A stretch of DNA of 64,000 nt from Polyangiaceae bacterium (GTDB taxonomy: Bacteria > Myxococcota_A > Polyangia > Polyangiales > Polyangiaceae), in assembly GCA_033763455.1 (NCBI GenBank), contig JANRKO010000039.1:1-64000 (forward strand). The letters run 5' to 3'. The notes below the pieces were generated by a model. The model worked only from the letters and a program-made list of their open reading frames with translations, searched no databases and had not been told where the DNA came from. Positions 26,173 to 51,377 of the stretch are shown here, piece by piece; position 1 is the stretch's first letter, and each line of letters begins with the position of its first letter. The position numbers and the translations under genes are program-made.

Positions 26173-26754
26173 ATGGCCCTTTCAATCGCCGAGCGTCGTC
26201 ACGTTTTCTCACTCGAAGAATATGCCGACGTGGCCGAGCGCAGCGCGACCCGCGTCGAGTACTGGGAAGGCGCGATCTTGGACATGTCTGGCGGCTCGCC
26301 CAGGCATTCGGCGATCTGCAGCAACGTCAGCCGGATTCTCGGTGCTCAGCTGCGCGGCACCCAGTGTCGGGTGTTCGACGCCAACCTGAGGGTCCGCTCG
26401 ATCGCGGCTAACCGCGCAACGTACGCAGATGTCACGGTGGTCTGCGGCCCGCTCGAGCTCGACCCGGCTGACAAGACCCGCCAAACCGTGCTGAACCCCA
26501 GCATCATCATTGAGGTTCAGAGCCCCTCGACGGAAAGCGACGATCGCGGTCCCAAGCTCGACTGCTACAAGATGATGGCCAGCGTGCGGGCCGTGATCCT
26601 GATCGCACAGGATCGAGCGCACGTGACTGTGCATGCACGGCAAGCCGACGGTTCGTTCGCGCAGAGCGATCACGACGGCGGCGCCATCGACCTTCCGGCG
26701 ATTGGCTGCGCCCTGCCGATCGCAGAGATCTACGAGGATCTTCCGAACCCGTGA
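26173..26754 (+). CDS. Uma2 (DUF820) family endonuclease
   Basis: EYWEG.I.DMSGGS.RH; YADVTVVCG; NPSIIIEVQSPSTE..DRG.K. Confidence 0.9.
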   Translation: MALSIAERRHVFSLEEYADVAERSATRVEYWEGAILDMSGGSPRHSAICSNVSRILGAQLRGTQCRVFDANLRVRSIAANRATYADVTVVCGPLELDPADKTRQTVLNPSIIIEVQSPSTESDDRGPKLDCYKMMASVRAVILIAQDRAHVTVHARQADGSFAQSDHDGGAIDLPAIGCALPIAEIYEDLPNP

Positions 26755-26958
26755 CCTCGGGCACGAAGGTTGGATGCCTCGCGAAACGCGCTATACCGAG
26801 CTGTTTCACGGCAAGTGGGTGCCCGTGGCCTTGGTAGAGCCCGACGCCGTCCTGATTTCCAAGACACTCAAGGCTCCCATGAAGAATGCGCCGTTAATCA
26901 CTGAGGACCTTGCGGCTCTTGCAACCAAGAGATCGAACTCCAACAAATGTTAACGCCG

Positions 26959-28938
26959 CTACTTCCCGCTCTTCTCGCTCCGCCCCGGCAAACGTGGGAA
27001 GCGCTGGCGCGCCACCAACTTTAAGGCATCGCACGGAGCATTGTTGAGCGAAGTTTGCTCCAGCGGATCGGCGAGCACATCGTAACAGTGGTACTCCGAA
27101 TCCCACGCGCGCGCCGCTACCTTGAGCGGGCCTTGCATCACGCCCCAGTTCTCAAACGCGCAACCCCACACGCCGGCGCAGTTCGTCATCGGCAGCGGTT
27201 GCTCGGTAGCTTGGCTGCGCAACCAGCTCGTGCCTGGCATACGCGTGCGAAACTGCGTGATTTCGGGTGCATCCAAAACGCCCATCAAATCCAGCATGGT
27301 GGGCACGATATCCACGTGAAAGGTAAACTCGTTGGATTTGCCCGCTAGGTATTGGGATTCCGAAAGGGAGAGCGTTCCAGGTGGCGCGTCTACCCAGCCC
27401 GGCACTTTGATCTCTTCGTCAAAAATGCTGAAGGTATGGCCCATCTGGTTGTGTTCGCGGAATGCCTCGCCGTGATCACTCGTGTAGAGGAGCACCGTGC
27501 GCGCTCCGATGTTGGAAGAACGGATGCCTTCGATCATGCGGGCTATATGGCGATCCTGCTGGTAGATGGAGTTCTGATAGTAGTTCTTAAAGGCGGCGTT
27601 TTGTGCGGGGCCCTTGCTGGTGGTGGCTGGCTGAAAGGGCTGAGCAACGCTGTCTTCCACGCGATAGGGGTAGTGGGTATTCGAAAGCTGAATTACAGCT
27701 AAAAAAGGCTCCTTCAATTGCGCCATTTCGCTGAGCGCTCGGTCCGCCAAGAGCTCCTCTGGCGCACCGGTGTCTAGATCAGCTGTCGGATCCAGATCAG
27801 TGGCGGAGGCGAACTTATCTGCGGCAAGCTTTTCGACCCAAAGGCGCGCATTGCCGAACAACATGTTCTGACTCGTCCAAAAGGCGGTTTGAAAACCCGC
27901 GGCGCGCGCATAGTCGAAGATCACCGGCCACGTGTGCAGCACCTCGCGTGATTCATTGGGCGTTACGCCAGTCCACAGCACGGCGAGCGAAATGGCGGTG
28001 GTTGAATCCAGCGCTCGCAGCTGATGCAAAGGTACCCGATTGGGCAAGAGTCGATTGGAAAATGGCGTCTTTTTGCAGGTTGAGCTATATTCTGAGCAGG
28101 TGCTGTCGGCGCGCACACTCTCCAAGATAAACAGCACCAGATTCCTAGGCGCTTGAACACGGGGGCTAAGCCTTGGCACATGTAGAGAAGCGCGCGCGCG
28201 CGGGCGGAACGCTGTGGCATCTGCCGTGAGGCCGAGCTCGTGCTCCAGCAGATCCCCCATCGCGTTCAGATATAAGACATCTGGGGTGCTAGCCTGAGCC
28301 TGGCGGTGATGGGTCGGAATGAAAAAGGTTGCGACGAGAACCAGCGGCGCCAAGATGGCCGTAGCGCGCCCCTGTCGTTGCCGCGGCCGGACCCAGCGCC
28401 TAGCGAGCCAAACCCAAAACCCAGCGACAAAGCCTGCCGGCAGCATCACCTTGAGATAATTCGGCAGATCCGCCAGGAACTGATTCAGCACGCTGCCGGC
28501 AAAATCCGTAGCGAAGCGCGACACATCAGAATTCAGATACACGTTGTTCTGTTCGAAAAAATACGACTGACCCGCGTGCACCAGCGTTGCAAAGAAGACA
28601 AACAACACCGCCGCCACGTGCCGCCCAACCCCACGCCGGCGCGAGGCTGCGTGCAGCAGCAGCGCCCAAACCAACAAACTCTCCAACAGCGCGCCTGCGT
28701 AAGCCAAGCGCAAGAGGCCGTTCATCGCCCACAGGCGCGGAGCCCGACGCCACACATCCAAAGCCACAGAAAGCCATGCCGGCGCCAGCAAAAGCACCCA
28801 CACCAAACGACGGCGCCACTCTGCAACTTCGCGCAAAGCGTGAGCACGTAACGATTGCTTAGCGGTGTTGGGGTTGGGCCGCAAATCACCGTCGGGGGCG
28901 GCGGAGGCACGATGTGGTTCTTTTTCACTCACTGACAA
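26959..28938 (-). CDS. membrane-anchored sulfatase-like hydrolase/transferase (LTA synthase/PEtN transferase-like)
   Basis: N-terminal TM helices; NLVLFILESVRAD; THYPY; YTSDHGE; GH; HVDIVPT. Confidence 0.8.
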   Translation of the reverse strand: MSVSEKEPHRASAAPDGDLRPNPNTAKQSLRAHALREVAEWRRRLVWVLLLAPAWLSVALDVWRRAPRLWAMNGLLRLAYAGALLESLLVWALLLHAASRRRGVGRHVAAVLFVFFATLVHAGQSYFFEQNNVYLNSDVSRFATDFAGSVLNQFLADLPNYLKVMLPAGFVAGFWVWLARRWVRPRQRQGRATAILAPLVLVATFFIPTHHRQAQASTPDVLYLNAMGDLLEHELGLTADATAFRPRARASLHVPRLSPRVQAPRNLVLFILESVRADSTCSEYSSTCKKTPFSNRLLPNRVPLHQLRALDSTTAISLAVLWTGVTPNESREVLHTWPVIFDYARAAGFQTAFWTSQNMLFGNARLWVEKLAADKFASATDLDPTADLDTGAPEELLADRALSEMAQLKEPFLAVIQLSNTHYPYRVEDSVAQPFQPATTSKGPAQNAAFKNYYQNSIYQQDRHIARMIEGIRSSNIGARTVLLYTSDHGEAFREHNQMGHTFSIFDEEIKVPGWVDAPPGTLSLSESQYLAGKSNEFTFHVDIVPTMLDLMGVLDAPEITQFRTRMPGTSWLRSQATEQPLPMTNCAGVWGCAFENWGVMQGPLKVAARAWDSEYHCYDVLADPLEQTSLNNAPCDALKLVARQRFPRLPGRSEKSGK

Positions 28939-28977: not shown

Positions 28978-29781
28978 TTAGATGGGCGTCATCCAGTTGG
29001 TAATGACATAGTTGGCAATCAGAATCGCAACGGCGCTGTGCACCACGGCACGGGTAGTGGCTTCACCCACGCCCTTGGCTCCACCTTTGGCAAAAAAGCC
29101 CTGACGACACGAGATGGCCGAAACCAAGAACCCAAACACACAAGCTTTTACCTCGCCCATGAACAAATCATTGAACGTGAGGTACTTCTCAATATTCGCC
29201 ACAAAAATCCCAGGATCAACTCCAAGCCACTTCACGGCCACCAAGTAAGCGCCGCCCATACCCACGCAAGAATACAAGATGCAAAGCAGCGGCATCATCA
29301 ACACACTGGCTAACAGCCGAGGGGACAACAAATATTGAATGGGGCTCACTCCCATGGTGGTGAGTGCATCTACCTGCTCGGTAACACGCATGTTGCCAAG
29401 CTCAGCTGCCATGGCGCTACCGGCGCGCGCGGTTACCATGAGTGCGGTAAACACTGGGCTAATCTCGCGAGCTAACGAAATGGCCACTACTGAGCCCACC
29501 ACACCTTGGGCTGAGAATTGCTTCAAGCTGTAAACAGTCTGCAGCGAGAGCACCATGCCGCTAAAGATCCCGGTGAGCGACACAATGAAGATGGACTGAA
29601 AGCCAATAAAGTCCATCGCGTTGAGCACTTGCGCCACACGCAGGGGCGGGCGAAAAATCCACGCCACCGTCTTGCCTGTGAGCTCCAGCAGTTGGCCTAG
29701 GCTATCCAGGGGCTTGAGCACCAGATCGAGCAGGTTCCAAACGCCCCAGCCTGAGTTCTCGCGTTCCGTGCTTTCTCCCAC
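28978..29781 (-). CDS. mlaE: MlaE-family ABC transporter permease
   Basis: REISPVFTALMVTARAGSAMAAELGNMRVTEQVDAL; GVGEATTRAVV. Start is GTG 29781 or TTG 29823. Confidence 0.92.
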   Translation of the reverse strand: MGESTERENSGWGVWNLLDLVLKPLDSLGQLLELTGKTVAWIFRPPLRVAQVLNAMDFIGFQSIFIVSLTGIFSGMVLSLQTVYSLKQFSAQGVVGSVVAISLAREISPVFTALMVTARAGSAMAAELGNMRVTEQVDALTTMGVSPIQYLLSPRLLASVLMMPLLCILYSCVGMGGAYLVAVKWLGVDPGIFVANIEKYLTFNDLFMGEVKACVFGFLVSAISCRQGFFAKGGAKGVGEATTRAVVHSAVAILIANYVITNWMTPI

Positions 29782-29849
29782 AAACCACTTCCTAACATGC
29801 CTTGGGGCTCGGGTGGCAAGCAACGTTCACACCGCTCGCTCTCTCCGTG

Positions 29850-30323
29850 TTAGCCGCGTGTTTCGGCTGCGGTGGCCGCAAGCAGCGCCTCACTTCTCGG
29901 CCCACTCGCAGTGAACTGCAACGTGCGTGGGGTAAAGCCTAGACGCACCGTAAGCGCGTCCCCGCCCAGCAATTCCGCATAAGGGGTGCCCCACTCCACG
30001 AGCAGGAGCGCACCCGCTTCGCGCTGAGCCAGCAAACCAAGCTCTGCAACCTCCTGCTCGGAGCTGACACGGTAAAGATCCGCGTGGCACACAAGCGGTT
30101 CTGTTTCGTACTCGTGCACCAGCGTGTAGGTGGGGCTCGTGACGCGCAATGCTTTGCCTCCTACAAGCGAACGACAAAACGCTCTAGCAAAAAAAGTCTT
30201 ACCCGCGCCGAGCGGCCCTTCCAACACAATCAAATCCGCCGCGGCGGACTGCGCCGCCAAGGCTTTCGCGAGCTCGCGCGTGCGGGCCTTGCTACCCAAG
30301 GGGAACACAACGCTTTCTGTCAC
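29850..30323 (-). CDS. tsaE: tRNA threonylcarbamoyladenosine biosynthesis ATPase
   Basis: LEGPLGAGKT; VTSPTYTLVHEY; HADLYR; LVEW. Confidence 0.95.
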   Translation of the reverse strand: MTESVVFPLGSKARTRELAKALAAQSAAADLIVLEGPLGAGKTFFARAFCRSLVGGKALRVTSPTYTLVHEYETEPLVCHADLYRVSSEQEVAELGLLAQREAGALLLVEWGTPYAELLGGDALTVRLGFTPRTLQFTASGPRSEALLAATAAETRG

Positions 30324-32137
30324 GGCAGGGCTCGCCCGCCGCCCGCAGGCGGCGGAGTAGTGAGTGGTTTCAGCAGACGGAGTGTTCGCTTGATGTCGCG
30401 GTTGGGGTCAAAGCCGCGGGCCTCACTTGACCACAATTCTACGTCAACGCTCGCAAGCGCTTGGCGGGCCAAAGTGTGAAGCTGACCCGCTTCCTCACGA
30501 TCATCGGACGAAGCGACTTCGGGAATAGCTTCGAGGGCACGCGCTCCGATTACGGCGGCGTCGTGACCTAACACCTGAAACCACGGCCCCACCTCCGCCG
30601 ATTCTGGGAACCGCCCTGCACCCAGCGCCACGGGGGCAAAACGTACTAGTGCCTCAGAAAGCCGCGAACTCTCGAGCCCAAGCAGCACCTTGGGCTTGGG
30701 CACAAAGCCGGCCAATAGGGCAGCTACCTCGCGGCTACAGGCTTCGTGCCCCAGCAAGAAAATCACTTGAAGCTTGGCTGCTTGCCAGCTTTCCCGAGGA
30801 TAGCTGAACTCCTCGTTTGCGCCCGGATCTCCTGCACACGGCAAAAAACCCGGGCCGACCCACGCGGTGCGAGAAAGCTCTGCCCCAAAGGCCGCTTCAC
30901 TCAACTTGCTCACCACCACGGCCGGAGGTACGCCCACACGAAAAGCGTACTCCGAGGCCACGCCGTCGGTGGGTGTATCGAGCAGCACCACCGGCAAACG
31001 TTCCTTCTCGGCATAGCGCGTCGCCGCAGCGGCGCTCGCTCCATCCACCCCTGCAATCGATAACGCTACACCCTCGCTCGCCAACGCCTCAAGCGCACGT
31101 TCGGTGCCACCTTCGGTGCCGTCATCCGACTCAGTAATCAGCTGCACTCCGGAATTTCCCGCGTCGGACGTGAGATCGAGTGCGCTCAAGACACCTGCAA
31201 CAACGCTCGCCGACCGGTCACGCACTCGATCGTTTCCTGCGCCCAGAACCAAGCCCAACCGACGCCCAATAACGCGCACTTTCGGCGGCGCCCCCGTTGT
31301 GGCCAAGCGTGAGAGCTCTGTGGTCACGTCCGTGACCCTTTCACGTACGGTCGTGGCCGCAAGCAACCAACGCGACAGTTTCGGATCCTTCTGCGAAATG
31401 GCCCTAGAAATAAGCGTTTGCCGGAGAGTCTTTAGAAACCACGCTCGCGCCAGCTGGCTGCCCGGGTCCCTCGCGTTAGAGGCGGGCTTGCCGAGGCGCC
31501 CCAAGGCCGCCTGAATGGCCCCCGTTGGAAGCCCCGAAATGAGGCCTCCTACGGCACGGTAGCTGGCCTCCGGCGTCGACAGGCTACCGCTTGTTATCCA
31601 ATCATACGCTGACTGAATAGTTTGCGCGTAGCGTTTGGCAGCGAGCCCCGCTCGAATGACTTCTTCGTAGTACAGCTGCCGTTCATCCCCTTCGATAATT
31701 TTCCCCTCCAAGGGAGCAAGGAGTGATAGCGCCGACTGGGGTTTTCCTTCGAAGGTGAGCGACGCTGCCATTGCCACGGTGGCAAGCTCACTGATCCTTC
31801 CGGTCGTTGTTTGCTTGACTTCTTGGGCCAAGCGCCTGCCTTCCCCGCGCTGCCCCGCATCCACAAGATTGAACGCCAGGTAACACCGAATCCACTGAGT
31901 GCCTGGATCATTCGGGTAGAGCGCCACCAGACGCCGAAGCTCAGGGGTCAGCGTACCCCGTTCTTTTCGCGGTAAAGAGAAGTACCGAATTCGAACGGCT
32001 CTTGCGTCCCGTTGCGCGTCCTTGTGCTCCGCTAACGCGGAAACGCCCGAACCTCGGGCGTGTTCTCCACTTCCGGCGCAGCCAAGGCACCCAAAGACGC
32101 AAAGGGCGCCAAGAAGCGTAACGTGGGTTGACGCCAT
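30320..32137 (-). CDS. lipoprotein with TPR-like N-terminus and periplasmic-binding-fold C-terminus (LpoA-like)
   Basis: Lipobox-like CLGC; helical repeats; LGLVL...; LGHDAA; GFDPNR tail; stop overlaps the tsaE start. Confidence 0.6.
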   Translation of the reverse strand: MASTHVTLLGALCVFGCLGCAGSGEHARGSGVSALAEHKDAQRDARAVRIRYFSLPRKERGTLTPELRRLVALYPNDPGTQWIRCYLAFNLVDAGQRGEGRRLAQEVKQTTTGRISELATVAMAASLTFEGKPQSALSLLAPLEGKIIEGDERQLYYEEVIRAGLAAKRYAQTIQSAYDWITSGSLSTPEASYRAVGGLISGLPTGAIQAALGRLGKPASNARDPGSQLARAWFLKTLRQTLISRAISQKDPKLSRWLLAATTVRERVTDVTTELSRLATTGAPPKVRVIGRRLGLVLGAGNDRVRDRSASVVAGVLSALDLTSDAGNSGVQLITESDDGTEGGTERALEALASEGVALSIAGVDGASAAAATRYAEKERLPVVLLDTPTDGVASEYAFRVGVPPAVVVSKLSEAAFGAELSRTAWVGPGFLPCAGDPGANEEFSYPRESWQAAKLQVIFLLGHEACSREVAALLAGFVPKPKVLLGLESSRLSEALVRFAPVALGAGRFPESAEVGPWFQVLGHDAAVIGARALEAIPEVASSDDREEAGQLHTLARQALASVDVELWSSEARGFDPNRDIKRTLRLLKPLTTPPPAGGGRALP

Positions 32138-32175
32138 GAGGTGCCTCCCGTAACCAACCTTCGCTCCGAGATGCC

Positions 32176-32901
32176 TTGGGTTCAACACCACGTACAGGTG
32201 ACCGATTGACCGAGGAGTCGTCAAGGGCTCTCCGGACATTCAAGATCGAGGCGTTGCGCCTTGGGCTGACGCTTTCGCCGTACGTTCGGGCCGCCACTTT
32301 CGGAGGGTTCCTCCTTCTTTACTTCACGTGCGACGCCCCGCTTGGCATTGCCGTGGGCAGTGAGCTTCCCCGAAGAGGGTCGGAACTCCCACTGGTGTTC
32401 TGGACACTTGGGATCATTATCTTGCTGGGGCTACTATTTGAGCTCGCATACGCTGCGCTCCACGTTGGCGTCGATGGCAGCGGCTCTCCTACCCACGCCG
32501 CGCGCATTACGGCCTACATCAGCTTCAGCTGGCGCTTCATCGCGCTGGCCTTCATAGGCTACCACCTAAGGCATAACTGGTGGCAAGTTGCCACCCATTC
32601 GCTCTATCTGGAGGATGTGAACGGCAAGCTCAGCCGCGAGCTTTCGAGTGTCACAAGCCTTGGCTTGCCGCTAATCGCACTAGGATATTTGTTAGGGTTC
32701 GCGAGCGTATGCTTCCACCTGAATGAGGCCCTGCGTACCGCGTGGCTCCGCGTGCCCGAGGGGCGTTATTCTCACCTGCCCGCAATCCTTCGGGTCTTCG
32801 TGAGTGCACTCGGGGTCGCGCTTTTTCTGGTCGCCGCCAACAGCGTGCTCGATCTTGCTACTGGGGCCTCTCTCCTTCACCATTTGCGACCTGCCTGGTG
32901 A
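32176..32901 (+). CDS. membrane protein, divergent succinate dehydrogenase cytochrome b558-like
   Basis: About 5 TM helices; LAFIGYHL and YLLGFASVCFHL His motifs. Start uncertain. Confidence 0.5.
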   Translation: MGSTPRTGDRLTEESSRALRTFKIEALRLGLTLSPYVRAATFGGFLLLYFTCDAPLGIAVGSELPRRGSELPLVFWTLGIIILLGLLFELAYAALHVGVDGSGSPTHAARITAYISFSWRFIALAFIGYHLRHNWWQVATHSLYLEDVNGKLSRELSSVTSLGLPLIALGYLLGFASVCFHLNEALRTAWLRVPEGRYSHLPAILRVFVSALGVALFLVAANSVLDLATGASLLHHLRPAW

Positions 32902-32919
32902 AAGACTAGGCTCCGCCCC

Positions 32920-33351
32920 GTGCCGCGTTGCTATTTCCTAACCCTGTGTGGTGGTTCAAGCTTGGATCAGCAGTCCAATAACGTAACGCTCTTTAATCTT
33001 GTGGAGCAAGTGAGCCTTGCACCCGGCCCGTGCCCGGTGGGAGCCCTTTTGCCGCTCGAAATTCACGCCTACTTTCAGTTCGCGCCGAGTGAGCTCAAGC
33101 AAACCATCCAGTTGCGTTATTCGGTGGTTGCACAATCGGGCCTCGAAACCACAACGGATGTCTTCGACCACCGCGCGCTCACCCCACATTACCGCACCCG
33201 CACGGCGGGCTTGCCTCTTCCACCGGTAACGGGCAGCTATGAGCTCCGTGTCGATTGGCGCCAAGCGGGAACAGAAGGCTGGACGCGCGAAAGCATAACG
33301 TGGCCACTTACGATCTCCGAAGCGGAGTCTCGCCCCATTACCACCCACTAA
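32920..33351 (+). CDS. hypothetical protein (DUF6941-like beta-sandwich)
   Basis: LC...D..SNNVTLFNLVE N-terminus and G.YELRV C-terminus; 7 nt upstream of folB. Confidence 0.6.
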   Translation: MPRCYFLTLCGGSSLDQQSNNVTLFNLVEQVSLAPGPCPVGALLPLEIHAYFQFAPSELKQTIQLRYSVVAQSGLETTTDVFDHRALTPHYRTRTAGLPLPPVTGSYELRVDWRQAGTEGWTRESITWPLTISEAESRPITTH

Positions 33352-41275: not shown

Positions 41276-41389
41276 TCACGTGAATCGCGCACGTTTCAGC
41301 GGGGCCTGAAAATCTGAGTCGCCATCCATCCAACGGGAAAGCATGTTCGTGTCGAACAGGACTCGCTTCCACGTTTGCTCCACGGCCAT
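41276..41389 (-). pseudogene. truncated PIN/VapC-like toxin
   Basis: RVLFDTNML PIN N-terminal signature; stops after 37 aa; starts 10 nt after the upstream gene. Confidence 0.6.
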
Positions 41390-41399
41390 CGCTCGGCGC

Positions 41400-42248
41400 C
41401 TAGTGATGGCTCGACCGGCCAAGATCAGATGCCAGCTCTTCGCTGTCCCACGAACCGCGCATGACCCCAAAGGTTTCGTCGAAGCGTTCCTCGGCCATTT
41501 GAGCAGTCTTGGCGGCGCGAATGTCGGCCGCATGCAAGTCGGCCATGTCGCCCTCGGCCGTGACCACGGCGTCCGTCAGCACAACCACTTCTTGACCCCA
41601 CAGTTCCCGCGCGCGATTGCGCAGAGCGCTCGGCATCTGCACGCTGCGACGAGCCCCGGAAGTAGCCAAGATAAACCCAGGAGGATCGTAGGTGAGCGAA
41701 ACAATCTGACCGCTGATCGACGTGGTAGCTCGCTGCCCCTTGCGTTGCGATACAGCATGCTTACGGAGAGACGCCTCCATCCTCGTGATACCGGCCACAA
41801 CGTTCCAGCTGCCACCCGACGTCTTGCTCACGAAGCTCAATGTCGCCGCACTCTCCTTGGCGGCGGCGCTTGCCCGCGCGAAGGCGTCAGCCCCTGAGGC
41901 GCTGAGGCGTGGTGCTTGTCCTTTTGGTACGCGCGCTAGCTCGGCGGCGGTTTCGCTCCAAAAAGCTTGTGCGATAAGGTCGCTGGCAAGCGGTGCTCCC
42001 TTCACGCCACCTCCCGCAATCAGCGGTACGATCAGGCTGCCCTTTCCCGTGGGCCCAATTGAGAAGGTAAGCGCGTCGCGAACCTGCGGCAACGCCCAAC
42101 CATGTTTTGCGGCCAGCTCCGGCGCTAGAGAAGCCCGAAGCGAAGTTAACCCTTCCAGCGTCGCTTGCAGGGCCCGAATGTACGCCTGGGCCTGCACGAA
42201 CTTCGCACCCGATGCGGGCTGGAACCGGACAGAGAACTGATGGCGCAT
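41400..42248 (-). CDS. hypothetical protein (282 aa), upstream partner of the PIN fragment
   Basis: Long ORF divergent from hsdM; C-terminal beta-rich region and acidic tail FDETFGVMRGSWDSEE. Confidence 0.7.
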   Translation of the reverse strand: MRHQFSVRFQPASGAKFVQAQAYIRALQATLEGLTSLRASLAPELAAKHGWALPQVRDALTFSIGPTGKGSLIVPLIAGGGVKGAPLASDLIAQAFWSETAAELARVPKGQAPRLSASGADAFARASAAAKESAATLSFVSKTSGGSWNVVAGITRMEASLRKHAVSQRKGQRATTSISGQIVSLTYDPPGFILATSGARRSVQMPSALRNRARELWGQEVVVLTDAVVTAEGDMADLHAADIRAAKTAQMAEERFDETFGVMRGSWDSEELASDLGRSSHH

Positions 42249-42363
42249 TCCGGTAGCATAGCCGCAAGCAAGGGGCGAGCGTGCAACTTTCTGCGACAAC
42301 CCCAAGACCCAGAACGCACGGTTCTTGATTGACGTTTCAAGTGCGGCCTAGTCTCACGTTTCC

Positions 42364-44490
42364 ATGGCATCCCCGCGCACCCAGGCCAACGTCACTGCGA
42401 AGAACCTACGGCCTTCGACCGCGAGCGGACCGAAGGCGGATTCTGCCCCTCCCGCTTCACCCCGCAGCTTCGGCGGCTTCTCGGAGATCACCTCGTTCAT
42501 CTGGGGCGTGGCTGATCTCCTTCGTGGAGATTACAAACAGGCAGACTACGGCAAGGTCATTCTGCCACTGACGGTCATTCGCCGCCTGGATTGCGTCCTC
42601 GACAAGTGCAAGGCGAAGGTGCTCGCGAAGCATGCAGAGCTGAAGCAGGCGAAGCACCCTGAGGGAACCATCGAGAAGATGCTGCTGCGCGCCAGCGGGA
42701 CCACTTTCTACAACACTTCGAAGCTCGACTTCGAAAAGCTGAAAGGCGACCCCAACAACATCGCCGCCAACCTCACCTCGTACATCAAGGGTTTCTCGCC
42801 CACCGCCCGCGACGTGATCGAGCAGTTCAAGTTCACGGATCAAATCGCCAAGCTGGAGGACGCAAACCTACTGTTCCAAGTGGTTTCGCGGTTTGCGGAC
42901 GTGGATCTCCACCCCGAAAAGGTGCCCAACCACGTGATGGGGTCCATCTTCGAGGAGCTGATCCGGAAATTCGCTGAAGCTTCAAACGAGACCGCTGGTG
43001 AGCACTTCACCCCCCGTGAAGTCATCCGCCTCATGGTGGACCTCCTTTTCATCGAGGACGAAGACACCCTGGCCAAGAAGGGCATCGTCCGCACTCTCTA
43101 CGATCCTGCGGCAGGAACGGGTGGTATGCTCTCCGTTGCCGAAGAATACCTGCGCGAGCTGAACCCCGATGCGGAGCTGAAGGTTTACGGGCAAGAGCTG
43201 AACTCCGAGTCTTACGCCATCTGCAAGAGCGACATGATGATCAAGGGGCAGGATCCCGAGCACATCATTCGCGGGAACTCCTTCTCTGAAGACGGGCACA
43301 GCGGCAAGAAATTCGACTACATGCTCTCCAACCCGCCCTTTGGCGTGGAGTGGAAGAAGGTTCAGAAAGAAATCGAGAACGAGCACGAGACTCAAGGCTT
43401 TGCCGGGCGCTTTGGTCCAGGTCTGCCGCGCATCAACGACGGCTCGCTCCTGTTCCTGCTGCACATGCTCTCGAAGATGAAGCCTGTGGACGCGAAAGGC
43501 GAAGGCGGCAGCCGCCTCGCGATTGTCTTCAATGGCTCACCGCTATTTACGGGGGACGCGGGCTCTGGCGAGAGCGAGATCCGGAAATGGGTGATCGAGA
43601 ATGACTGGCTCGAAGCCATTGTCGCGCTGCCCGATCAACTCTTCTACAACACCCCAATCTCCACATACCTGTGGATCGTCACCAACCGTAAGCCTAAGGC
43701 CCGCCGGGGCAAGGTGCAGCTCATCAACGGTGTCGAGCTGTTCCAGAAGATGCGAAAATCCCTTGGGAACAAGCGGAACGAGCTGGGCAAGGCGCACATC
43801 GAGACGCTCGCTAAAACCTACGGAGATTTTCTCACCAGCGACATCGCGAAGGTCTTCGACAATGCGGATTTTGGGTTCCGCCGCATCACCGTGGAGCGTC
43901 CGCTTCGTCTGAATTTCCAGGCGTCACCAGAACGCCTTGAACGATTGCAGGAGGAGAGCGGCTTCGCGGCGCTGGCCAAGTCGAAGAAGAAGGGGGCTCC
44001 CGGGGAACGCGAGGCGGAGGAAGGGCGAGAACTGCAAGAGAAAATCGTGGCGGTGCTTCGCACGCTGAATCCGTCGCAGGCAATCAAGAACCGCGATGCC
44101 TTTGAGAAGACGCTGCGCTCAGCCTTTCAGAAGGCGAAGCTCGATGTGCCGACGCCGGTTTTCAAGTCGGTGATGGCGGCGCTTTCTGAACGCGATGAGA
44201 GCGCAGACGTTTGCACCGACAGCAAGGGTCGCCCGGAGCCTGACGCCGAGCTGCGGGACAACGAGAATGTTCCCTTGAAAGAGGATATCCAGAAGTACTT
44301 CAAGCGCGAGGTATTGCCTCATGTGCCGGATGCTTGGATTGATGAGAGCAAGACGAAGATTGGGTATGAGATCCCGTTCACGCGGCATTTCTACAAGTAC
44401 AAGGCGCTGCGGCCGCTGAGCGAGATTGAGGCGGAAATTCGGGCACTAGAGGGGGAGATCCAGGGGATGTTGGGGGAGGTGCTGGGGTGA
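42364..44490 (+). CDS. hsdM: type I R-M methyltransferase subunit (m6A)
   Basis: GEHFTPREVI; YDPAAGTGGML; GQELN; SNPPFG; LFYNT.I.TY. Confidence 0.96.
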   Translation: MASPRTQANVTAKNLRPSTASGPKADSAPPASPRSFGGFSEITSFIWGVADLLRGDYKQADYGKVILPLTVIRRLDCVLDKCKAKVLAKHAELKQAKHPEGTIEKMLLRASGTTFYNTSKLDFEKLKGDPNNIAANLTSYIKGFSPTARDVIEQFKFTDQIAKLEDANLLFQVVSRFADVDLHPEKVPNHVMGSIFEELIRKFAEASNETAGEHFTPREVIRLMVDLLFIEDEDTLAKKGIVRTLYDPAAGTGGMLSVAEEYLRELNPDAELKVYGQELNSESYAICKSDMMIKGQDPEHIIRGNSFSEDGHSGKKFDYMLSNPPFGVEWKKVQKEIENEHETQGFAGRFGPGLPRINDGSLLFLLHMLSKMKPVDAKGEGGSRLAIVFNGSPLFTGDAGSGESEIRKWVIENDWLEAIVALPDQLFYNTPISTYLWIVTNRKPKARRGKVQLINGVELFQKMRKSLGNKRNELGKAHIETLAKTYGDFLTSDIAKVFDNADFGFRRITVERPLRLNFQASPERLERLQEESGFAALAKSKKKGAPGEREAEEGRELQEKIVAVLRTLNPSQAIKNRDAFEKTLRSAFQKAKLDVPTPVFKSVMAALSERDESADVCTDSKGRPEPDAELRDNENVPLKEDIQKYFKREVLPHVPDAWIDESKTKIGYEIPFTRHFYKYKALRPLSEIEAEIRALEGEIQGMLGEVLG

Positions 44491-45680
44491 AATCAGTTCG
44501 CCTAAAGTTCGTAGCCAGATTTGCATATGGGGACTCTCTGTCGAGCGATCATCGGACTGACGGTGACGTGCCGGTCTACGGTTCCAATGGAATCGTCGGG
44601 ACGCACTGTAGAGCGAACACGCTCGCTCCCGCCATTGTGGTCGGACGGAAGGGATCCTTCGGCAAGCTTGCGTATTCCAGCAGAGCCGCATTCTGCATTG
44701 ATACGACGTTCTTCATTGATCGCCGCTTCTCGCGTACCGATCTTCGATGGCTCTACTACGCGCTTCAAACGGCAGGGCTCGACGAACTGTCTCAGGACAC
44801 TGGCGTTCCGGGGCTTTCCCGAGAAACGGCATACGAGAAGGCGCTCCCGGTTCCTGCCGAGGCGATGCAGCGAGAGATCGCTACCTTCCTCGATCGCAAG
44901 ACTGCCGCCATCGATGCCCTCATCGCCAAGAAGGAGCGCCTCATCGAGCTGCTCCAGGAGAAGCGGCAGGCGCTTATCACGCAGGCGGTGACGAAGGGGC
45001 TGGACCCAAACGTGCCGATGAAGGAGTCGGGGGTTCCGTCGCTCGGACGTTGTCCGGCCCACTGGCAGCTGAAGCGCCTGATGCATCTCACTCCGTCGCG
45101 GCGCCAGATCATGTACGGCATCGTGTTGCCTGGGCCCAACGTTGCGGAGGGAATCCCGATCGTCAAGAGCGGAGATTGTGTGGCCGAGAAGCTTCGCCTA
45201 GATCGCTTGCATCGCACGACGCCAGAGATTGAAGCGCCATTCGCAAGAGCGCGTCTTGAGCCAGGAGACATCGTCTACGCGATTCGTGGCAGTATCGGGA
45301 TGGCTGCGATGGTGCCTCCGGAGCTAAGGGGCGCAAACCTAACCCAGGACGCTGCGCGTATCGCGCCTCGCTTCGGCATCGGCGGCCGATGGCTGCTCTA
45401 CGTCGTCCAGTCCACTGGAGTCTGGTCGCAACTTCAAGCCGGGGTGGTCGGTGCGACGGTCAAGGGGATCAACATTCGGGACCTCAAGCGCCCGATGGTC
45501 CCCGTGCCTCCGCAAGTGGAGCAAAACCAAATCTTCCGCTTCCTTGATGGGGCCATCGGCGGGATGGACAAGGCTCGAGCCTCCACGGAACGAAGCGTCG
45601 AGCTCCTCCGCGAATACCGCCAAGCCCTCATCACCGCGGCCGTCACCGGCAAAATCGACGTAACCAAGGAAGCCGCGTGA
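44487..45680 (+). CDS. hsdS: type I R-M specificity subunit
   Basis: Two TRDs separated by the conserved helix KRQALITQAVTKGLDP; C-terminal REYRQALITAAVTGKIDV; GTGA overlap with hsdM. Confidence 0.95.
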   Translation: MKSVRLKFVARFAYGDSLSSDHRTDGDVPVYGSNGIVGTHCRANTLAPAIVVGRKGSFGKLAYSSRAAFCIDTTFFIDRRFSRTDLRWLYYALQTAGLDELSQDTGVPGLSRETAYEKALPVPAEAMQREIATFLDRKTAAIDALIAKKERLIELLQEKRQALITQAVTKGLDPNVPMKESGVPSLGRCPAHWQLKRLMHLTPSRRQIMYGIVLPGPNVAEGIPIVKSGDCVAEKLRLDRLHRTTPEIEAPFARARLEPGDIVYAIRGSIGMAAMVPPELRGANLTQDAARIAPRFGIGGRWLLYVVQSTGVWSQLQAGVVGATVKGINIRDLKRPMVPVPPQVEQNQIFRFLDGAIGGMDKARASTERSVELLREYRQALITAAVTGKIDVTKEAA

Positions 45681-46600
45681 GCGACATCAAGCTCTTCAGC
45701 CTTAAAGGTATTCCTCCCGTTGAACTCACGGGCAAATCCGTCGCCCTAGAGAAGTCCCTCCAGATCTTAATCGAAGCCCACCTCGACGCGTTCCTCGGGG
45801 TTCGGTTTCTCGCCACCGAATACTCCACCGGTAAGGTCCACGGGGGCCGCATCGATACTTTGGGCATCGATGAGAATGGTTGCCCCGTCATCATCGAGTA
45901 CAAGCGCGCGACCAACGAGAATGTCATCAATCAGGGGCTTTTCTACCTCGATTGGTTGATGGACCATAAGGGCGAGTTTGAGCTTCTGGTGCTGAAGAAG
46001 CTGGGCAAGGAAGCCTCCGAAGACATCGAGTGGGGGAGCCCGCGGTTGATCTGCATCGCGGGGGACTTTACCAAATACGACGGGCATGCCGTCCAACAGA
46101 TCAACCGCAACATCGAGCTCGTGCGTTACCGAAAGTACGGCGACGAACTGCTTCTCTTGGAGCTGGTGAACGTGGTCAGCGTTGAGCCCTCCGAAGCGGA
46201 GAGTGGTCCGGCTCCCGTGGGCACCACTGGCAGTGGTGTGGCGAAGCTGACTGCCGCCGATCAAGTGCGGGCGGCTCCGTTGGAGCTTCGAGATCTGTTC
46301 GAAGCCGCAAAGGCGTTCCTCCTTGGGTTGGGCGACGATGTTCAACTCAAGCCGATGAAGTTCTACTTCGCGTTCAAGCGCCTGAAGAACTTTGCCTGCG
46401 TCGAGATCAGGTCCCAGGCAAAGACGGTTCGCATCCACGTCAAGGTCAACCCGGACAGCATCACCTTGGAGGATGGTTTCACCCGAGATGTCCGCGGGGT
46501 TGGGCATTACGGCACCGGAGATCTTGAGATCACTCTGCGAACCTTGGATGATCTGGAAAGGGCCAAAGCGCTTTTGATCAGGAGTTACGAGGCAAGCTGA
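45677..46600 (+). CDS. NucS/EndoMS-like PD-(D/E)xK nuclease fused to DUF5655
   Basis: EKSLQ...E; GRIDTLG.D...PVIIEYKR; QGLFY; C-terminal KFYFAFKRLKNF...RDV.GVGHYGTGDLE; GTGA overlap with hsdS. Confidence 0.8.
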   Translation: MSDIKLFSLKGIPPVELTGKSVALEKSLQILIEAHLDAFLGVRFLATEYSTGKVHGGRIDTLGIDENGCPVIIEYKRATNENVINQGLFYLDWLMDHKGEFELLVLKKLGKEASEDIEWGSPRLICIAGDFTKYDGHAVQQINRNIELVRYRKYGDELLLLELVNVVSVEPSEAESGPAPVGTTGSGVAKLTAADQVRAAPLELRDLFEAAKAFLLGLGDDVQLKPMKFYFAFKRLKNFACVEIRSQAKTVRIHVKVNPDSITLEDGFTRDVRGVGHYGTGDLEITLRTLDDLERAKALLIRSYEAS

Positions 46601-46649
46601 TGGCTAATGTCGCTCTTCGTGCAGGTCGTATCGCACCGCAGGATGCCGG

Positions 46650-48137
46650 ATGAGTCCTGTGCGCTCCCCTGAGGGCCTGCACCGGCTTGCGCTTGAGCTC
46701 CTCGCGATGCCGCGAGAGACCGCCTGGCTTGAGTTCAAGCACAACAATGGCAATCCGGAAGAGATCGGCGAATACATCTCGGCGCTGGCAAACTCCGCGG
46801 CACTCTCAGACAAGCCTTACGGTTACGTGCTTTGGGGTGTTGAGGACGGCACAAACGCACTTGTGGGAACAACATTTGCTCCCCACGCCGAGAAGAAGGG
46901 AAACGAGGGACTTGAAAACTGGTTGCATCGTGGCCTGCAGCCGCCCACGCACTTCGAATTCTTCGAGATCCCTGTGGATAACAAACGTGTTGTGGTGCTT
47001 GAGGTGGAGCGAGCACAAAGGCAACCCGTGCAGTTTCGCGGCGACGAGTACATCCGTCTATCGTCTCACAAGAAGCGGCTGAAGGACCTACCAGAGAAAG
47101 AGCGCCTACTCTGGAGAACTTTTGATCGCGTAGCGTTCGAAGGCGGCATTGCACTGGAGGATGTCGACGCAGAAACCCTCACGGAACGACTTGACCACGC
47201 CGGCTACTTCAGCCTGACGAAACAGCGCGTTCCTGAATCCCGCAGTGGCATCGTTGACGCACTCGTGCGGGAGAAGGCTGTCCAGCGGACGAGCGGCGGA
47301 CTTTGGAACATTACGAACCTGGGCGCGTTGCTTTTCGCCAAGAGGCTTGAGGACTTTCCGACACTGTCGCGCAAAGCCATGCGCGTCATTGTCTACGAGG
47401 GAACGAGCCGCATTCGCACCAAGAGGGAGCAGGTTGGGAGCCGTGGATACGCTACCGGGTTCGAGGGCCTAATCGAATTTGTCAGGGCCCTGGTCCCGGC
47501 CAATGAGGAGATTGCAAAGGCGCTGCGAACTAGTGTCCCCATGTATCCCGAGTTGGCGATTCGTGAACTTGTCGCGAACGCTCTAATCCATCAGGATTTT
47601 AGCACAACCGGGGTTGGACCAATGATTGAGATTTTCGACGATCGAATTGAAATCACCAACCCCGGCACGCCCCTTCTGGATGTGGATCGTTTTTTGGACA
47701 ATCCTCCATGCTCGCGCAATGAAACATTGGCTGCTCTTATGCGAAGAATGGGGATCTGCGAAGAGCGAGGGAGCGGGATTGATAAGGTGGTGTTTGAACT
47801 CGAGTTCTACCAACTTCCGGCACCGCTCTTTCAAGTGCTCGGCGAGAGCACACGAGCAGTACTTTTCGCCCCTCGACCTCTCGCGAAGATGGATCGTGAA
47901 GACCGCGTTCGCGCGTGCTACCTGCACGCCTGCCTCCGGTACGTCAGTCAAGAGTACCTAACCAACGCGTCGCTCCGGCAGCGCTTCGGTATTGGGGCGC
48001 AAAACAGCGCCACTGCCTCGCGCTTGATCAAGGAAGCAATCGAAGCCGGGAAGATCACTCCGGAGAACGATGGGGTGAACCGCAAGCTCATGCGCTACGT
48101 ACCTCATTGGGCGCTCGCACGAGAGAGCCCAGAATGA
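46650..48137 (+). CDS. Schlafen/AlbA_2 domain + RecG-C-like HATPase_c_4 + wHTH protein
   Basis: RETAWLEFK; ISALANS; GYVLWGVED; AIRELVANALIHQD; DRIEITNPG; RN..LA; EERGSGI; C-terminal HTH. Confidence 0.85.
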   Translation: MSPVRSPEGLHRLALELLAMPRETAWLEFKHNNGNPEEIGEYISALANSAALSDKPYGYVLWGVEDGTNALVGTTFAPHAEKKGNEGLENWLHRGLQPPTHFEFFEIPVDNKRVVVLEVERAQRQPVQFRGDEYIRLSSHKKRLKDLPEKERLLWRTFDRVAFEGGIALEDVDAETLTERLDHAGYFSLTKQRVPESRSGIVDALVREKAVQRTSGGLWNITNLGALLFAKRLEDFPTLSRKAMRVIVYEGTSRIRTKREQVGSRGYATGFEGLIEFVRALVPANEEIAKALRTSVPMYPELAIRELVANALIHQDFSTTGVGPMIEIFDDRIEITNPGTPLLDVDRFLDNPPCSRNETLAALMRRMGICEERGSGIDKVVFELEFYQLPAPLFQVLGESTRAVLFAPRPLAKMDREDRVRACYLHACLRYVSQEYLTNASLRQRFGIGAQNSATASRLIKEAIEAGKITPENDGVNRKLMRYVPHWALARESPE

Positions 48138-48256
48138 CGGCGTTTCTCTTTGATGAGTTTGTCTCGGCCCACCTTCCGAATGCATATTTTACAAGTTATT
48201 ACAAATACTTAGCTCTTTGATGGCCATTTGATCAGAGCCCCCGACAGACCCCCGGG

Positions 48257-48331
48257 GATCGACCCAACCTCCACCCCGATCGACCCAACCTCCACCCGAT
48301 CGACCCAACCTCCACCCCGATCGACCCAACC
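48257..48331 (+). repeat. 20-21-bp tandem repeat (GATCGACCCAACCTCCACCCC, about 3.6 copies)
   Basis: Units start at 48257 (21 nt), 48278 (20 nt), 48298 (21 nt) and 48319 (partial); no spacers. Confidence 0.92.
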
Positions 48332-48368
48332 CCAACTCCGACATCCCGCCTCAAGAGGGGAGGACTAA

Positions 48369-51300
48369 GTGCCCAAAACCCAAGAACGACACTTCGAAGA
48401 CGCCATTGAGCACCATCTGATCGCCGCAGGCGGCTGGACCAAGGGCAACGCTGCCGACTTCGATCGGCACACCGCGCTCGTCCCCAAAGATTTCTTCGCG
48501 TTCGTCGAGTCCACGCAGCCGGAGCTCTGGGCCGATCTCCGAAAGCATCACCAGGCAAATCTCGAAGCTGCAGTTCTCGACACGCTCGTCAAGGCGCTCG
48601 ACGTACGCGGGTCCCTGGACGTGATGCGGCACGGGTTCAAGTTCTTTGGGAAGAAAATCGAGTGTGCGTACTTCAAGCCAGCACACGGGATGAACCCGGA
48701 GATCCTGGCGAAATACGCCAAAAACCGCTTGGTGGTGACCCGCCAAGTGAAGTTCATCGCGGAGAGCGAGCACTCGGTGGATCTGGTGCTCTTCGTGAAT
48801 GGCTTCCCTATAGCCACGGCGGAGCTGAAGAACCCTCTCACTAAGCAGACTGTTCAGAATGCGATCACGCAGTACCGAGACCGGGAAGCTCGGCATGCAC
48901 TTTTCCAGTTCAAAAAGCGCGCCCTCGTTCACTTCGCCGTGGACCCGGATCTCGTCTACATGGCGACCAAGCTCGCCGGCAAAGATACCGTGTTTCTGCC
49001 GTTTAACCGGGGCGCCAACGGCGGCGCTGGAAATCCCGAGCACCCGAGCGGCTACCGCACAGGATATCTTTGGGAGGAGGTCTGGCAGCGTGACAGCTTC
49101 CTCGACATCCTGGGGCGCTTCGCCCACTTGATGGTGGAGGAACGGAAGGTCGACGGCAAGATCGTCTCGAAGGAGAGTATCGTTTTCCCTCGCTACCACC
49201 AGCTCGATGTGGTCTGGAAGCTGGACGAGACCGCCCGCAAAGAGGGCGCCGGACACAGCTACTTGATCCAGCATTCGGCGGGTTCCGGCAAGAGCAACTC
49301 CATTGCCTGGCTCGCGCATCGCCTTTCCAGCCTTCACGACGACAAAGACCAAAAGGTCTTCGATTCGGTGGTGGTTATCACTGACCGGCGTGTCCTCGAC
49401 CAGCAACTACAAGAGAACATCTACCAATTCGAGCACAAGCAGGGTGTGGTCCAGAAGATCGACGAAAACAGCCAGCAGCTAGCGGATGCACTCACTTCTG
49501 CCACGCCCATCATCATCACGACGCTCCAGAAGTTTCCTTTTGTTACCGAGAAGATCGGTAAACTCCCGGGCCGTCGCTACGCCCTCATCGTGGACGAAGC
49601 CCACAGCTCCCAAACAGGCGAGGCCGCCCGGCACATGAAGGAAGTGCTAGCAGCGCGGAGCCTGGAGGATGCTGAGCAAGAAGAAGGCGGCGAGGAGGAA
49701 GATTCGGAGGATCGCTTGGTCAAGGTAATGGCGTCACGCGGCAAGCAGAAGAACCTGTCCTTCTTTGCCTTTACCGCCACGCCCAAAGCGAAGACGTTGG
49801 AAGTTTTCGGTCATCGTGATCCAGAGGGCAAACCGATCCCGTTCCACTTGTACTCGATGCGCCAAGCCATTGACGAGGGCTTCATCCTCGATGTGCTGAA
49901 GAACTACACGACCTACAAGACGTACTACCGCCTGGTAAAGGCGATAGAGGACGATCCCAAGGTCAACAAGCGCAAAGCGACGAGCCAGCTCGCGCGCTTC
50001 ATGTCGCTCCACCAGTACAATATCGCCCAAAAGACGGAGGTGATGGTCGAGCACTTTCGCTCCAAGGTGCGCCACCGCATCGGCGGCAAAGCGAAGGCCA
50101 TGGTCGTTACGAGTTCGCGCCTTCACGCCGTGCGCTACCACCAAGCATTCCAGAAATACATCGCCGAACGCGGGTACAGGGACGTAGGCGTTTTAGTGGC
50201 GTTCTCCGGCGTGGTGAAGGACCCCGACGTGGATGGGGTCGAGTTCACCGAGCAGGGGATGAACAAGGGCATCAAGGAGCGCGAGCTTCCGGAGAAATTC
50301 GAAGGCGACGAGTTCCAAGTGCTGTTGGTCGCCAACAAGTACCAAACTGGCTTTGATCAGCCTTTGCTCCACACGATGTATGTGGACAAAAGGCTCTCGG
50401 GCGTTCAAGCGGTGCAGACCTTGTCGCGGCTCAACCGCATCGCTCCCGGCAAGGAGGACACCTTTGTCTTGGACTTCGTCAACGATGTTGACGAAATCGA
50501 ACGCTCATTCCAGCCCTACTACGAGCAGACAACGGTCGCCGAGACAGCCGATCCGAACCAGCTGTACGAACTTCAGCATCGGTTGGAAGCCTTCCAAGTT
50601 TTTTGGGCCCAAGAGGTCGAAGCCTTCTGCAAGTATTTCTATGCCCCGAAAGAGAAGCAAAGTGTCTCGGATCAAGCCGAAATGTACCGCGCCCTCGGCC
50701 CCGCCGTGGATCGCTTCAAGGCCAAGAGCGAGGACGATCAGGACGAATTCCGCAACGTGCTCTCCGGTTTCGTTAAGCTGTACTCGTTCTTGTCGCAGGT
50801 GATGCCGTTCACTGATCCCGACCTAGAGAGGCTCTATACCTACGGGCGCTTTCTCGAACTGAAGCTTCCCAAGGACGAAAAGAAGGCGCCCCTCGATCTG
50901 GATGGTGAGGTGGCACTCAAGTACTACCGCCTCGATAAGATCAGCGAAGGTCAGATTGTGCTCACCCTTGCCGACCCCGTCGCCATTCGTGGCCCGTCGG
51001 CGCTCGGGACGCGCCAAGCGAAAGACATCGAGGCCCCGCTTTCGGAGATCATCGAAGTGCTCAATGAGCGCTTTGGCACGGAATTCACCAAGGCGGATCA
51101 ACTCCTGTTCGATCAGTTCATCCAGGAAGCGAAGCAAGATCAGGAGGTAGTAGAGCGCGCGCTCGCCAACCCGCTTGATAACTTTGAGCTAGCTATGAAG
51201 CCCAAAGTCGAAGGGCTTATGATCGACCGCATGGATCAGAATCAAGACATCGTGAACCGCTACCTGAACGACGCCGCGTTCCAGTCGGCCGCCTTCAAAG

Positions 51301-51377
51301 CCATTGTGAAGCAGATTTACAACGAGATCCGGAAGAGCAGTTCACGGCCACCGCCGCCGCAGACGCCAAGTGGCTGA
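48369..51377 (+). CDS. hsdR: type I R-M restriction subunit
   Basis: VDLVLFVNG.P....ELKN nuclease motif; QHSAGSGKS; VDEAHSSQ; FTATP; QTGFDQP; QTLSRLNR; GGAGGA RBS before the GTG. Confidence 0.96.
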   Translation: MPKTQERHFEDAIEHHLIAAGGWTKGNAADFDRHTALVPKDFFAFVESTQPELWADLRKHHQANLEAAVLDTLVKALDVRGSLDVMRHGFKFFGKKIECAYFKPAHGMNPEILAKYAKNRLVVTRQVKFIAESEHSVDLVLFVNGFPIATAELKNPLTKQTVQNAITQYRDREARHALFQFKKRALVHFAVDPDLVYMATKLAGKDTVFLPFNRGANGGAGNPEHPSGYRTGYLWEEVWQRDSFLDILGRFAHLMVEERKVDGKIVSKESIVFPRYHQLDVVWKLDETARKEGAGHSYLIQHSAGSGKSNSIAWLAHRLSSLHDDKDQKVFDSVVVITDRRVLDQQLQENIYQFEHKQGVVQKIDENSQQLADALTSATPIIITTLQKFPFVTEKIGKLPGRRYALIVDEAHSSQTGEAARHMKEVLAARSLEDAEQEEGGEEEDSEDRLVKVMASRGKQKNLSFFAFTATPKAKTLEVFGHRDPEGKPIPFHLYSMRQAIDEGFILDVLKNYTTYKTYYRLVKAIEDDPKVNKRKATSQLARFMSLHQYNIAQKTEVMVEHFRSKVRHRIGGKAKAMVVTSSRLHAVRYHQAFQKYIAERGYRDVGVLVAFSGVVKDPDVDGVEFTEQGMNKGIKERELPEKFEGDEFQVLLVANKYQTGFDQPLLHTMYVDKRLSGVQAVQTLSRLNRIAPGKEDTFVLDFVNDVDEIERSFQPYYEQTTVAETADPNQLYELQHRLEAFQVFWAQEVEAFCKYFYAPKEKQSVSDQAEMYRALGPAVDRFKAKSEDDQDEFRNVLSGFVKLYSFLSQVMPFTDPDLERLYTYGRFLELKLPKDEKKAPLDLDGEVALKYYRLDKISEGQIVLTLADPVAIRGPSALGTRQAKDIEAPLSEIIEVLNERFGTEFTKADQLLFDQFIQEAKQDQEVVERALANPLDNFELAMKPKVEGLMIDRMDQNQDIVNRYLNDAAFQSAAFKAIVKQIYNEIRKSSSRPPPPQTPSG

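Follow-up and report, generated by a model that had tools for sequence, protein, structure and literature searches.

Among 5,930 prokaryotic Schlafens the Schlafen-HisKinase (34.0%) and Schlafen-HisKinase-HTH (19.2%) architectures together account for 53% (PMC13056530), and genes coding for Schlafen, minimal histidine kinase and winged helix-turn-helix (wHTH) domains are found in defence operons of 1017 or more taxa, in which these genes have been proposed to be suicidal backup RNases of BREX/BR systems (PMC12839542). We have analyzed one such gene, here called F, and the repeat element located just behind it, in a type I restriction-modification (R-M) operon (hsdM-hsdS-N-F-hsdR, N being a NucS-like nuclease gene) of a Polyangiaceae bacterium. 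The operon lies in contig JANRKO010000039.1 of assembly GCA_033763455.1, the first 64,000 nucleotides of which were analyzed and are called the window below. By its domain order and Ex4ExK motif F belongs to the class of pSlfn1 and pSlfn2 (Schlafen-HisKinase-HTH), for which the published supplement also has rows with type I R-M neighbours (Perez Taboada et al., 2026, PMC13056530). EcoSlfn1 and EhoSlfn1, of this class, gave no significant effect against nine phages (PMC13056530). The parts of that paper covered (abstract, two sections, term searches and parts of the supplement) make no mention of a DNA site, whereas F here is accompanied by a predicted cognate 3' operator. The BREX backup effectors are of the same class as F, although the host of F here is a type I R-M system, and the part of PMC12839542 covered gives neither a control mechanism nor a DNA site for them. 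Other relatives with the same domain order are MloB (a plasmid annotation) and DIP2311 (PDB 3LMM).

A second group of described systems resembles the locus by gene arrangement. PrrC, encoded between hsdS and hsdR, combines an ABC-ATPase with a HEPN anticodon nuclease. It is embedded in the type IC locus (PMC12707154), and both in PrrC-EcoprrI and in Ronin the effector gene lies inside or is linked to the hsd genes, as F is. Unlike PrrC, neither N nor F has ABC-ATPase or HEPN domains (Pfam, fold search), and unlike PrrC and Ronin, F is often found without hsd genes and keeps a DNA element instead of a protein partner. N, and the slot as a whole, are best compared with TgvAB (Vibrio cholerae VPI-2) and DarTG2 (RRDM island of enteropathogenic Escherichia coli), independent defence modules within a type I operon, although TgvAB is GmrSD-like whereas N is NucS-like with a DUF5655 domain. 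RptR of the RRDM island is a small upstream promoter repressor with no Schlafen fusion. As regards the element, the geometry of the lac O3-O1 loop offers a comparison for a looped operator, and in LacI with transfer-messenger RNA (tmRNA), CcpA-cre and C.Kpn2I a protein bound to DNA, within or at its own gene or a target gene, halts elongation and leaves a truncated mRNA; such a roadblock is inferred in F, whose DNA-binding domain, unlike those repressors, shares one protein with a predicted RNase domain and a domain for ATP binding. Neither the operon nor the two cargo families nor the backup RNase idea is new; what is new is the phased, covarying 3' operator, of which no description was found in a literature search that left most subscription papers outside. 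The novelty claimed for the combined cargo by the original prediction, which had been made from the letters of the window, is lower, the Schlafen-kinase-wHTH architecture being already catalogued as BREX backup (PMC12839542) and as that 53% of prokaryotic Schlafens (PMC13056530).

The repeat element behind gene F

The original prediction had noticed a repeat before hsdR, and this is indeed an array of four 20-21-bp units (48257-48336). Between it and the F stop codon there is a second element (48146-48232), overlooked at that time and far more conserved than the array. Two sites, made of direct repeats with a period of 11 bp, flank an IHF-like site called from the IHF consensus. In the window gene F and the element are arranged as follows:

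46650-48137, + strand: gene F, coding for Schlafen, ATP-binding and winged-helix domains (Pfam, alignment, model, fold search)
48146-48154, no strand assigned: candidate stop-proximal operator site, one half-site with its TTGAT core at 48150 (repeat pattern)
48189-48211, no strand assigned: IHF/HU-like site (core 48189-48201, second overlapping core 48199-48211)
48213-48232, no strand assigned: candidate distal operator site, TTGAT half-sites at 48217 and 48228, with a spacing of 11 bp (repeat pattern)

The element was counted in 80 loci (78 genome loci, the window and L097), and 37 viral, phylum and plasmid loci were held out. The pattern TTG[AC][CT]N6TTG[AC] was found within 174 nt of the F stop in 74 of the 80 loci, and 41 of the 80 had two such repeat pairs. 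The corresponding counts were 1 of 78 upstream of F, 1 of 75 downstream of N and 1 of 80 on the opposite strand, and shuffled sequences gave 1.26. A search free of the pattern, which asked for a repeat of at least 12/14, recovered 57 of the 79 loci in the first set, compared with 2 after shuffling, and 14 of the 37 in the held-out set, compared with 0 after shuffling. The spacings between sites followed a period of 10.5 bp, that of the DNA helix (56 of 57 first-set spacings fitted, one value of 110 being left out), and the period persisted after dropping the peak at 85-90 (p 5e-5). All 14 held-out spacings deviated by no more than 2 bp from the ladder derived from the first set, a result seen in 0 of 200,000 null draws. 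The first repeat pair starts between -4 and +19 relative to the F stop in 46 of 52 loci, and in 23 of 60 an IHF-like site starts 26-32 nt ahead of the distal pair (2.4 in shuffled sequences), with mirror matches at -41 in 10. The IHF-like core of the window, which starts 28 nt before the distal pair, stands in the usual register of the family, and the host genome contains three HU/IHF genes and tmRNA.

Inverted copies of the element were detected in L207, L214 and L215, and in L078 the array is located upstream of F. Because of these inverted and upstream copies we favour that the element acts as DNA rather than RNA. An RNA family or structured RNA was considered and rejected on the same copies and on a single chance Rfam match elsewhere (E 0.56), no folding having been run. 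In L078 (9762-9985 and 12830-14700) the operon is hsdM-F-hsdS and three repeat pairs, spaced by 88-89 bp, lie upstream of F; the same locus also has a second, distant F paralogue followed by its own, different 21-bp array. The strict repeat pair occurs just three times in the 6.56-Mb host genome, which argues for a cis site and not a regulon and led us to discard F as a genome-wide regulator.

F could instead be mainly a transcription regulator of the downstream gene, here a controller of hsdR, with a Schlafen domain that is vestigial or regulatory. The element does lie between F and hsdR in many type I loci, databases label the family transcriptional regulator or MloB, and two pSlfn1 genes gave no defence. 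However, the element persists where a convergent or unrelated gene follows (39 of the 44 loci that lack a type I system; it is present in 33 of 34 that have one), the F-hsdR gap has no promoter-like match, the aligned element has no conserved -10 box, and the Schlafen catalytic triad is invariant in 30 homologues. We consider this alternative improbable.

Recognition of the element by F and its proposed role

The protein coded by F matches the profiles SLFN_AlbA_2 (5.5e-20) and HATPase_c_4 (1.5e-23) and has at least 7,999 homologues. Its Schlafen/AlbA_2 motif is E23-x4-E28-x-K30, and the ATP-binding domain, of the histidine kinase type, carries E306, N310, H314 and ERGSG at 372-376. The structural model (pLDDT, predicted local distance difference test, 85.6) matched SLFN/SAMD9 domains, histidine kinase ATP-binding domains (aa 240-408) and winged helices (aa 412-490); the overall match to DIP2311 (3LMM) had Z 22.1, with a root mean square deviation (rmsd) of 16.7 over 349 aligned residues, and a prediction of a complex of two copies scored 0.01. 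Both the model and the fold search place a winged helix at the C-terminus, with a predicted recognition helix starting at S453.

It is precisely residue 453 that is tracked by the base at position -1 of the TTGAY core. Over the 70 of 82 loci scored (5 ties and 7 loci without motif were omitted), K453 went with a purine in 14 of 14 and any other residue with a pyrimidine in 53 of 56 (Fisher p 3.5e-12). Column 453 was the best of all alignment columns, the next other column giving 1.3e-5, and independent pairs on a tree built without the winged-helix region of F gave a median of 6:0 (p 0.03). The held-out set agrees with the rule: its sole K453 has a purine, as predicted, and the other residues were found with 12 pyrimidines, one purine and one tie. 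Other helices go with other repeats in the same layout (L044, L068 and L083), and Y453 is found with a GTGAY-type core in L219, L214 and L215. Because the spacing is phased to the helix, the site is invertible and the base covaries with residue 453, F likely reads its own 3' operator. Judging from these sequence patterns, the winged helix of F very probably binds both repeat sites on double-stranded DNA, the intervening DNA being bent into a loop by IHF or HU.

Direct repeats placed around an IHF-like site also resemble the attachment regions of integrases, so the element might be a scar (arm sites with IHF) left at recombination or attachment by the agent that moves the cassette, and not be read by F at all. 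There are integrase or recombinase genes near F on some plasmids, but the repeat tracks residue 453 above any other column and across independent branches, and a matching element was found upstream of F in just 1 of 78 loci, which makes a scar very improbable.

For the locus as a whole, a reading to which we give an even chance is that of an R-M operon carrying N and F cassettes, in which the F gene is followed by a repeat-IHF-like-repeat operator that F likely binds. Most likely, F sitting on its own 3' operator would limit F synthesis and keep the predicted RNase latent. Because the proximal site overlaps or abuts the F stop codon, bound F might block RNA polymerase at the end of its own gene, a plausible step that we rate slightly below an even chance and for which there are precedents in the trans-translation of lacI mRNA and the CcpA roadblocks (PMC3985003), as well as in the C.Kpn2I roadblock. 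Such a roadblock would yield a stop-less F mRNA to be cleared by tmRNA; this clearance would hold a promoter-less, potentially toxic RNase low in whatever operon F lands, as would suit a cassette whose translation is coupled to that operon, and the roadblock would also reduce read-through into the gene that follows, in this case hsdR. More tentatively, a phage that removes or competes for the DNA anchor, by breakdown of host DNA or by DNA-mimic anti-restriction proteins, could free F or let it accumulate, after which the ATP-binding domain would license tRNA cleavage and growth arrest. F would in this way back up restriction without the need to touch HsdRMS. In its widest form, which we regard as rather doubtful, the proposal would be that the commonest bacterial Schlafens are DNA-anchored RNases, in which an IHF-bent 3' operator co-evolving with the winged helix, and not a protein or RNA antitoxin, silences the tRNase until phage-driven DNA destruction or a DNA-mimic anti-restriction protein intervenes.

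Instead of a roadblock, the element could be a platform that activates F, which assembles on it, or an antitoxin of the addiction type; the cell would then die on losing the locus or the integrity of its DNA, and F would be a selfish cassette spreading among permissive slots. F is found alone on plasmids, prophages and satellites, the phasing and the IHF-like site imply a built nucleoprotein complex, and the element appears in either orientation and in one case upstream. This explanation leaves the closeness of the first site to the stop unaccounted for, and it needs a toxicity that is only presumed, so we hold it to be unlikely.

Several points weigh against the operator and roadblock proposal. 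The sample is narrow, since the context set of F (the best 80 of 580 confirmed genome loci) is one clade with 52-63% identity; in the held-out set the repeat pattern appeared in only 15 of 32 scorable loci, and no repeat was seen in many more distant homologues of F. The K/purine trait was picked after the table had been seen, 12 loci were left out of its scoring as said above, and among the held-out loci there is a single K. Only the 23 of 60 loci already mentioned have the IHF-like site in register. In the window itself the proximal site is down to one half-site, 67 bp from the distal pair, where relatives often have a full pair, and the L078 array, being upstream of F, does not fit the step of the stop-less mRNA. 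Finally, two pSlfn1 constructs gave no defence against nine phages in E. coli (PMC13056530 supplement), one of them a 495-codon gene beside Mza and the other listed as a 483-nt open reading frame (ORF).

The operon and the exchange of its cargo

The remaining features of the operon and its intergenic region are the following:

42364-44490, + strand: hsdM, type I methyltransferase, 708 aa, intact (Pfam N6_Mtase and HsdM_N; PADLOC MTase_I 1e-297)
44487-45680, + strand: hsdS, specificity subunit of 397 aa, overlapping the hsdM stop by GTGA (Pfam, PADLOC, NCBIfam)
45677-46600, + strand: gene N, PDC-S18 family, GTGA overlap with the hsdS stop (DUF5655; PADLOC PDC-S18)
48257-48336, no strand assigned: four-unit 21-bp repeat array, probably the relic site array of an earlier slot occupant
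48369-51377, + strand: hsdR, restriction subunit, 1002 aa, intact, ribosome-binding site at 48356-48363 (Pfam, PADLOC, NCBIfam)

The five ORFs are intact and co-oriented, all on the + strand, and the gene order, the two GTGA overlaps (M/S and S/N) and the intact Schlafen and nuclease (D...EYK) motifs of the original prediction were confirmed, the motifs being invariant in 30 and 28 homologues, respectively. F starts 49 nt past N, and hsdR 231 nt past F, with its own ribosome-binding site. Profiles and motifs identify HsdM, HsdS and HsdR as members of a type I R-M system; HsdM has the S-adenosylmethionine-binding motif I and NPPF, and HsdR has nuclease and superfamily 2 motor motifs, with Walker A and DEAH. 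The GC content of the operon matches that of the window, and at third positions it was 0.64 in F vs 0.71-0.77 in the hsd genes and N. Further hsdM/hsdS-like genes are found in the host (G000: C48, ~29469-33195; C37, ~25420-27395; C62, ~22373-25000), one of these pairs enclosing an F paralogue (L005), and no second HsdR was found in the host genome with that of the window as query. Before hsdM (41276-42305) there is a divergent 301-aa ORF with no Pfam or PADLOC match, convergent with a short ORF whose end resembles, by eye, a truncated start of a PIN domain; the two are possibly a decayed toxin-antitoxin pair.

A type I gene was found in 35 of the 80 F loci and near N in 27 of the 80 N loci (the best 80 of 525 metagenome loci), so both cargo families are tied to restriction-type loci, as had been proposed, and co-occurrence with hsd genes departs from a random distribution. 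Type I status of the F loci was assigned by similarity clustering, which missed remote families (L029 and L044), so that 35 of 80 is a floor. Others among the N loci have type III, IIG-like or BREX genes. Across its loci the companions of F include several type I families, type III, BREX-like and DUF1156/DUF499 systems and housekeeping genes, and in some cases F is solitary on plasmids, prophages and satellites. Locus L042 (1747-17271) has F between DUF1156/DUF499 genes and mukE/mukB-like genes. In L013 (10-4857) a BREX-type (Eco57I/DUF7008) methyltransferase and an F homologue share one frame of 1615 aa followed by the repeat element, either a real fusion or a lost stop codon, and full-length F homologues (40-48%) are present in phage records H41-H44, a Burkholderia phage and three Streptococcus satellite phages.

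These contexts bear directly on whether F is a guard of the PrrC type, as the original prediction had it, binding HsdRMS and firing its RNase once anti-restriction proteins inhibit the complex. Among the 80 loci, 29 have F inside a type I operon and 24 have it immediately after hsdS, overlapping or abutting it in 21 of these; PrrC (PMC12707154) and RonA (bioRxiv 10.1101/2023.04.06.535777) are precedents, and the negative phage tests used F-class genes from outside type I operons. Against this, type I genes are absent from 17 of the 35 F loci that extend 5 kb or more to each side and type I status switches 21 times on the F tree (both indirect arguments), the partners are as varied as described above or absent, the closest operons have no F, and the constant companion of F is a DNA element and not a protein. 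The guard of its own HsdRMS was not borne out and seems to us unlikely.

The layered defence that had also been predicted is plausible from the hsd linkage, but not as a combined module of N and F. None of the 80 F loci has an N-family gene and a single one of the 80 N loci has F, so that a conserved N-F module was rejected, and the closest operons have the order S-N-R or S-N-other nuclease-R. Among these, L086 is S-N-R with an HsdR 81% identical to that of the window, and L087/L088, apparently one sequence, has M-S-N-DUF4268 protein-R, with an HsdM 83% identical over its full length (L088); the DUF4268-containing protein (L087/L088:11023-11952) takes the slot held by F in the window. Given that the nearest operons swap or lack the N or F cargo, turnover in the hsdS-hsdR slot is rapid, a behaviour shared with TgvAB and DarTG2. 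The slot holds two independently exchanged cassettes, N and F, and the operon of the window is an ordinary example of cargo stacking there. No joint removing a cassette was seen in four DNA contig sets, which proves nothing either way.

The array before hsdR could be followed in the same genus. Its hsdR relative in L176 (80% identical) is preceded by the 3' remnant of a double-winged-helix F paralogue (34% identical to the L002 paralogue of the host) and by two 21-bp arrays, one of which shares the 21-bp unit of the window in a 76%-identical stretch. Because L176 has the same unit beside this remnant and before hsdR, the array of the window is probably the relic site array of an earlier occupant, a double-winged-helix F paralogue; a search of 300 class-level genomes did not recover the tandem pattern of 21 bp in its exact form. 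In L176 (3415-6412; G003:C143) hsdR lacks its middle part, and the two different arrays can also be read as a repeat-only ORF that overlaps the stop of the paralogue remnant. Distant paralogues (L002, L003, L005, L067, L078 and L181) carry 12- or 21-bp tandem repeats within the gene, immediately ahead of a winged helix, or have an array past the stop codon. Of these, L002, L003 and L005 are in the host genome, several of L002, L003, L005, L067 and L181 have a Fic-like_C C-terminal winged helix, and the in-gene low-complexity linkers of these five may be in-gene operators.

Gene N codes for a NucS-like PD-(D/E)xK nuclease domain (~aa 24-165) and a DUF5655 domain similar to YjbR/MotCF (aa 192-307). 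Profile matches were DUF5655 (9e-13), NucS_C (1.6e-4, below cut-off) and, over the full length, the PADLOC candidate PDC-S18 (1.7e-145). The motifs D60...E74-x-K76 and Q86xxxY90 are invariant among 28 homologues, and there are at least 7,999 homologues in all. The nuclease domain of the model (pLDDT 73.1) matched 2VLD with Z 11.8 and rmsd 2.3 over 104 aligned residues, and the C-terminal domain matched YdhG-like, YjbR and MotCF structures (Z 6.4-8.3). In EndoMS a DNA-recognition domain precedes the nuclease domain. The nuclease domain of N starts near residue 24 and aligns to 2VLD 126-233, which leaves no room for such an N-terminal domain, and the NCBIfam NucS score was 21 bits against a cut-off of 216, so that a mismatch-type NucS/EndoMS was discarded. 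Of the two kinds of DNase put forward in the original prediction, modification-dependent or mismatch-type, we infer that the former is likelier, given the fusion of DUF5655 to GmrSD in L025 and the EVE genes located next to N. N could well be a stand-alone DNA endonuclease cutting modified or otherwise marked foreign DNA, although our confidence in this stays a little under one half. The GmrSD-DUF5655 fusions (L025:2586-4688, by Pfam, and L053:6409-8514, same cluster) lie between hsdM and hsdS in operons that have F as well. These associations suggest that DUF5655 is an exchangeable DNA-reading domain, and DNA binding has been predicted for YjbR (PMC7641849). A literature search, outside which most subscription papers fell, found PDC-S18 named in no paper and DUF5655 in one unrelated paper, and a protein-cluster search with DUF5655 returned only DUF5655 and unnamed clusters.

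Meaning for the bacterial Schlafens

The architecture of F is that of more than half of the prokaryotic Schlafens, yet the parts of PMC13056530 covered report no activity or trigger for the class. A cognate cis element, together with the rule that links residue 453 to a base, makes the control of the largest bacterial Schlafen class directly testable. The element may show how a promoter-less toxic cargo regulates itself inside foreign operons. If F is indeed a DNA-anchored RNase, it would serve any restriction, BREX or DUF499 system as a portable backup, and the apparent inactivity of such genes when tested alone would be explained.

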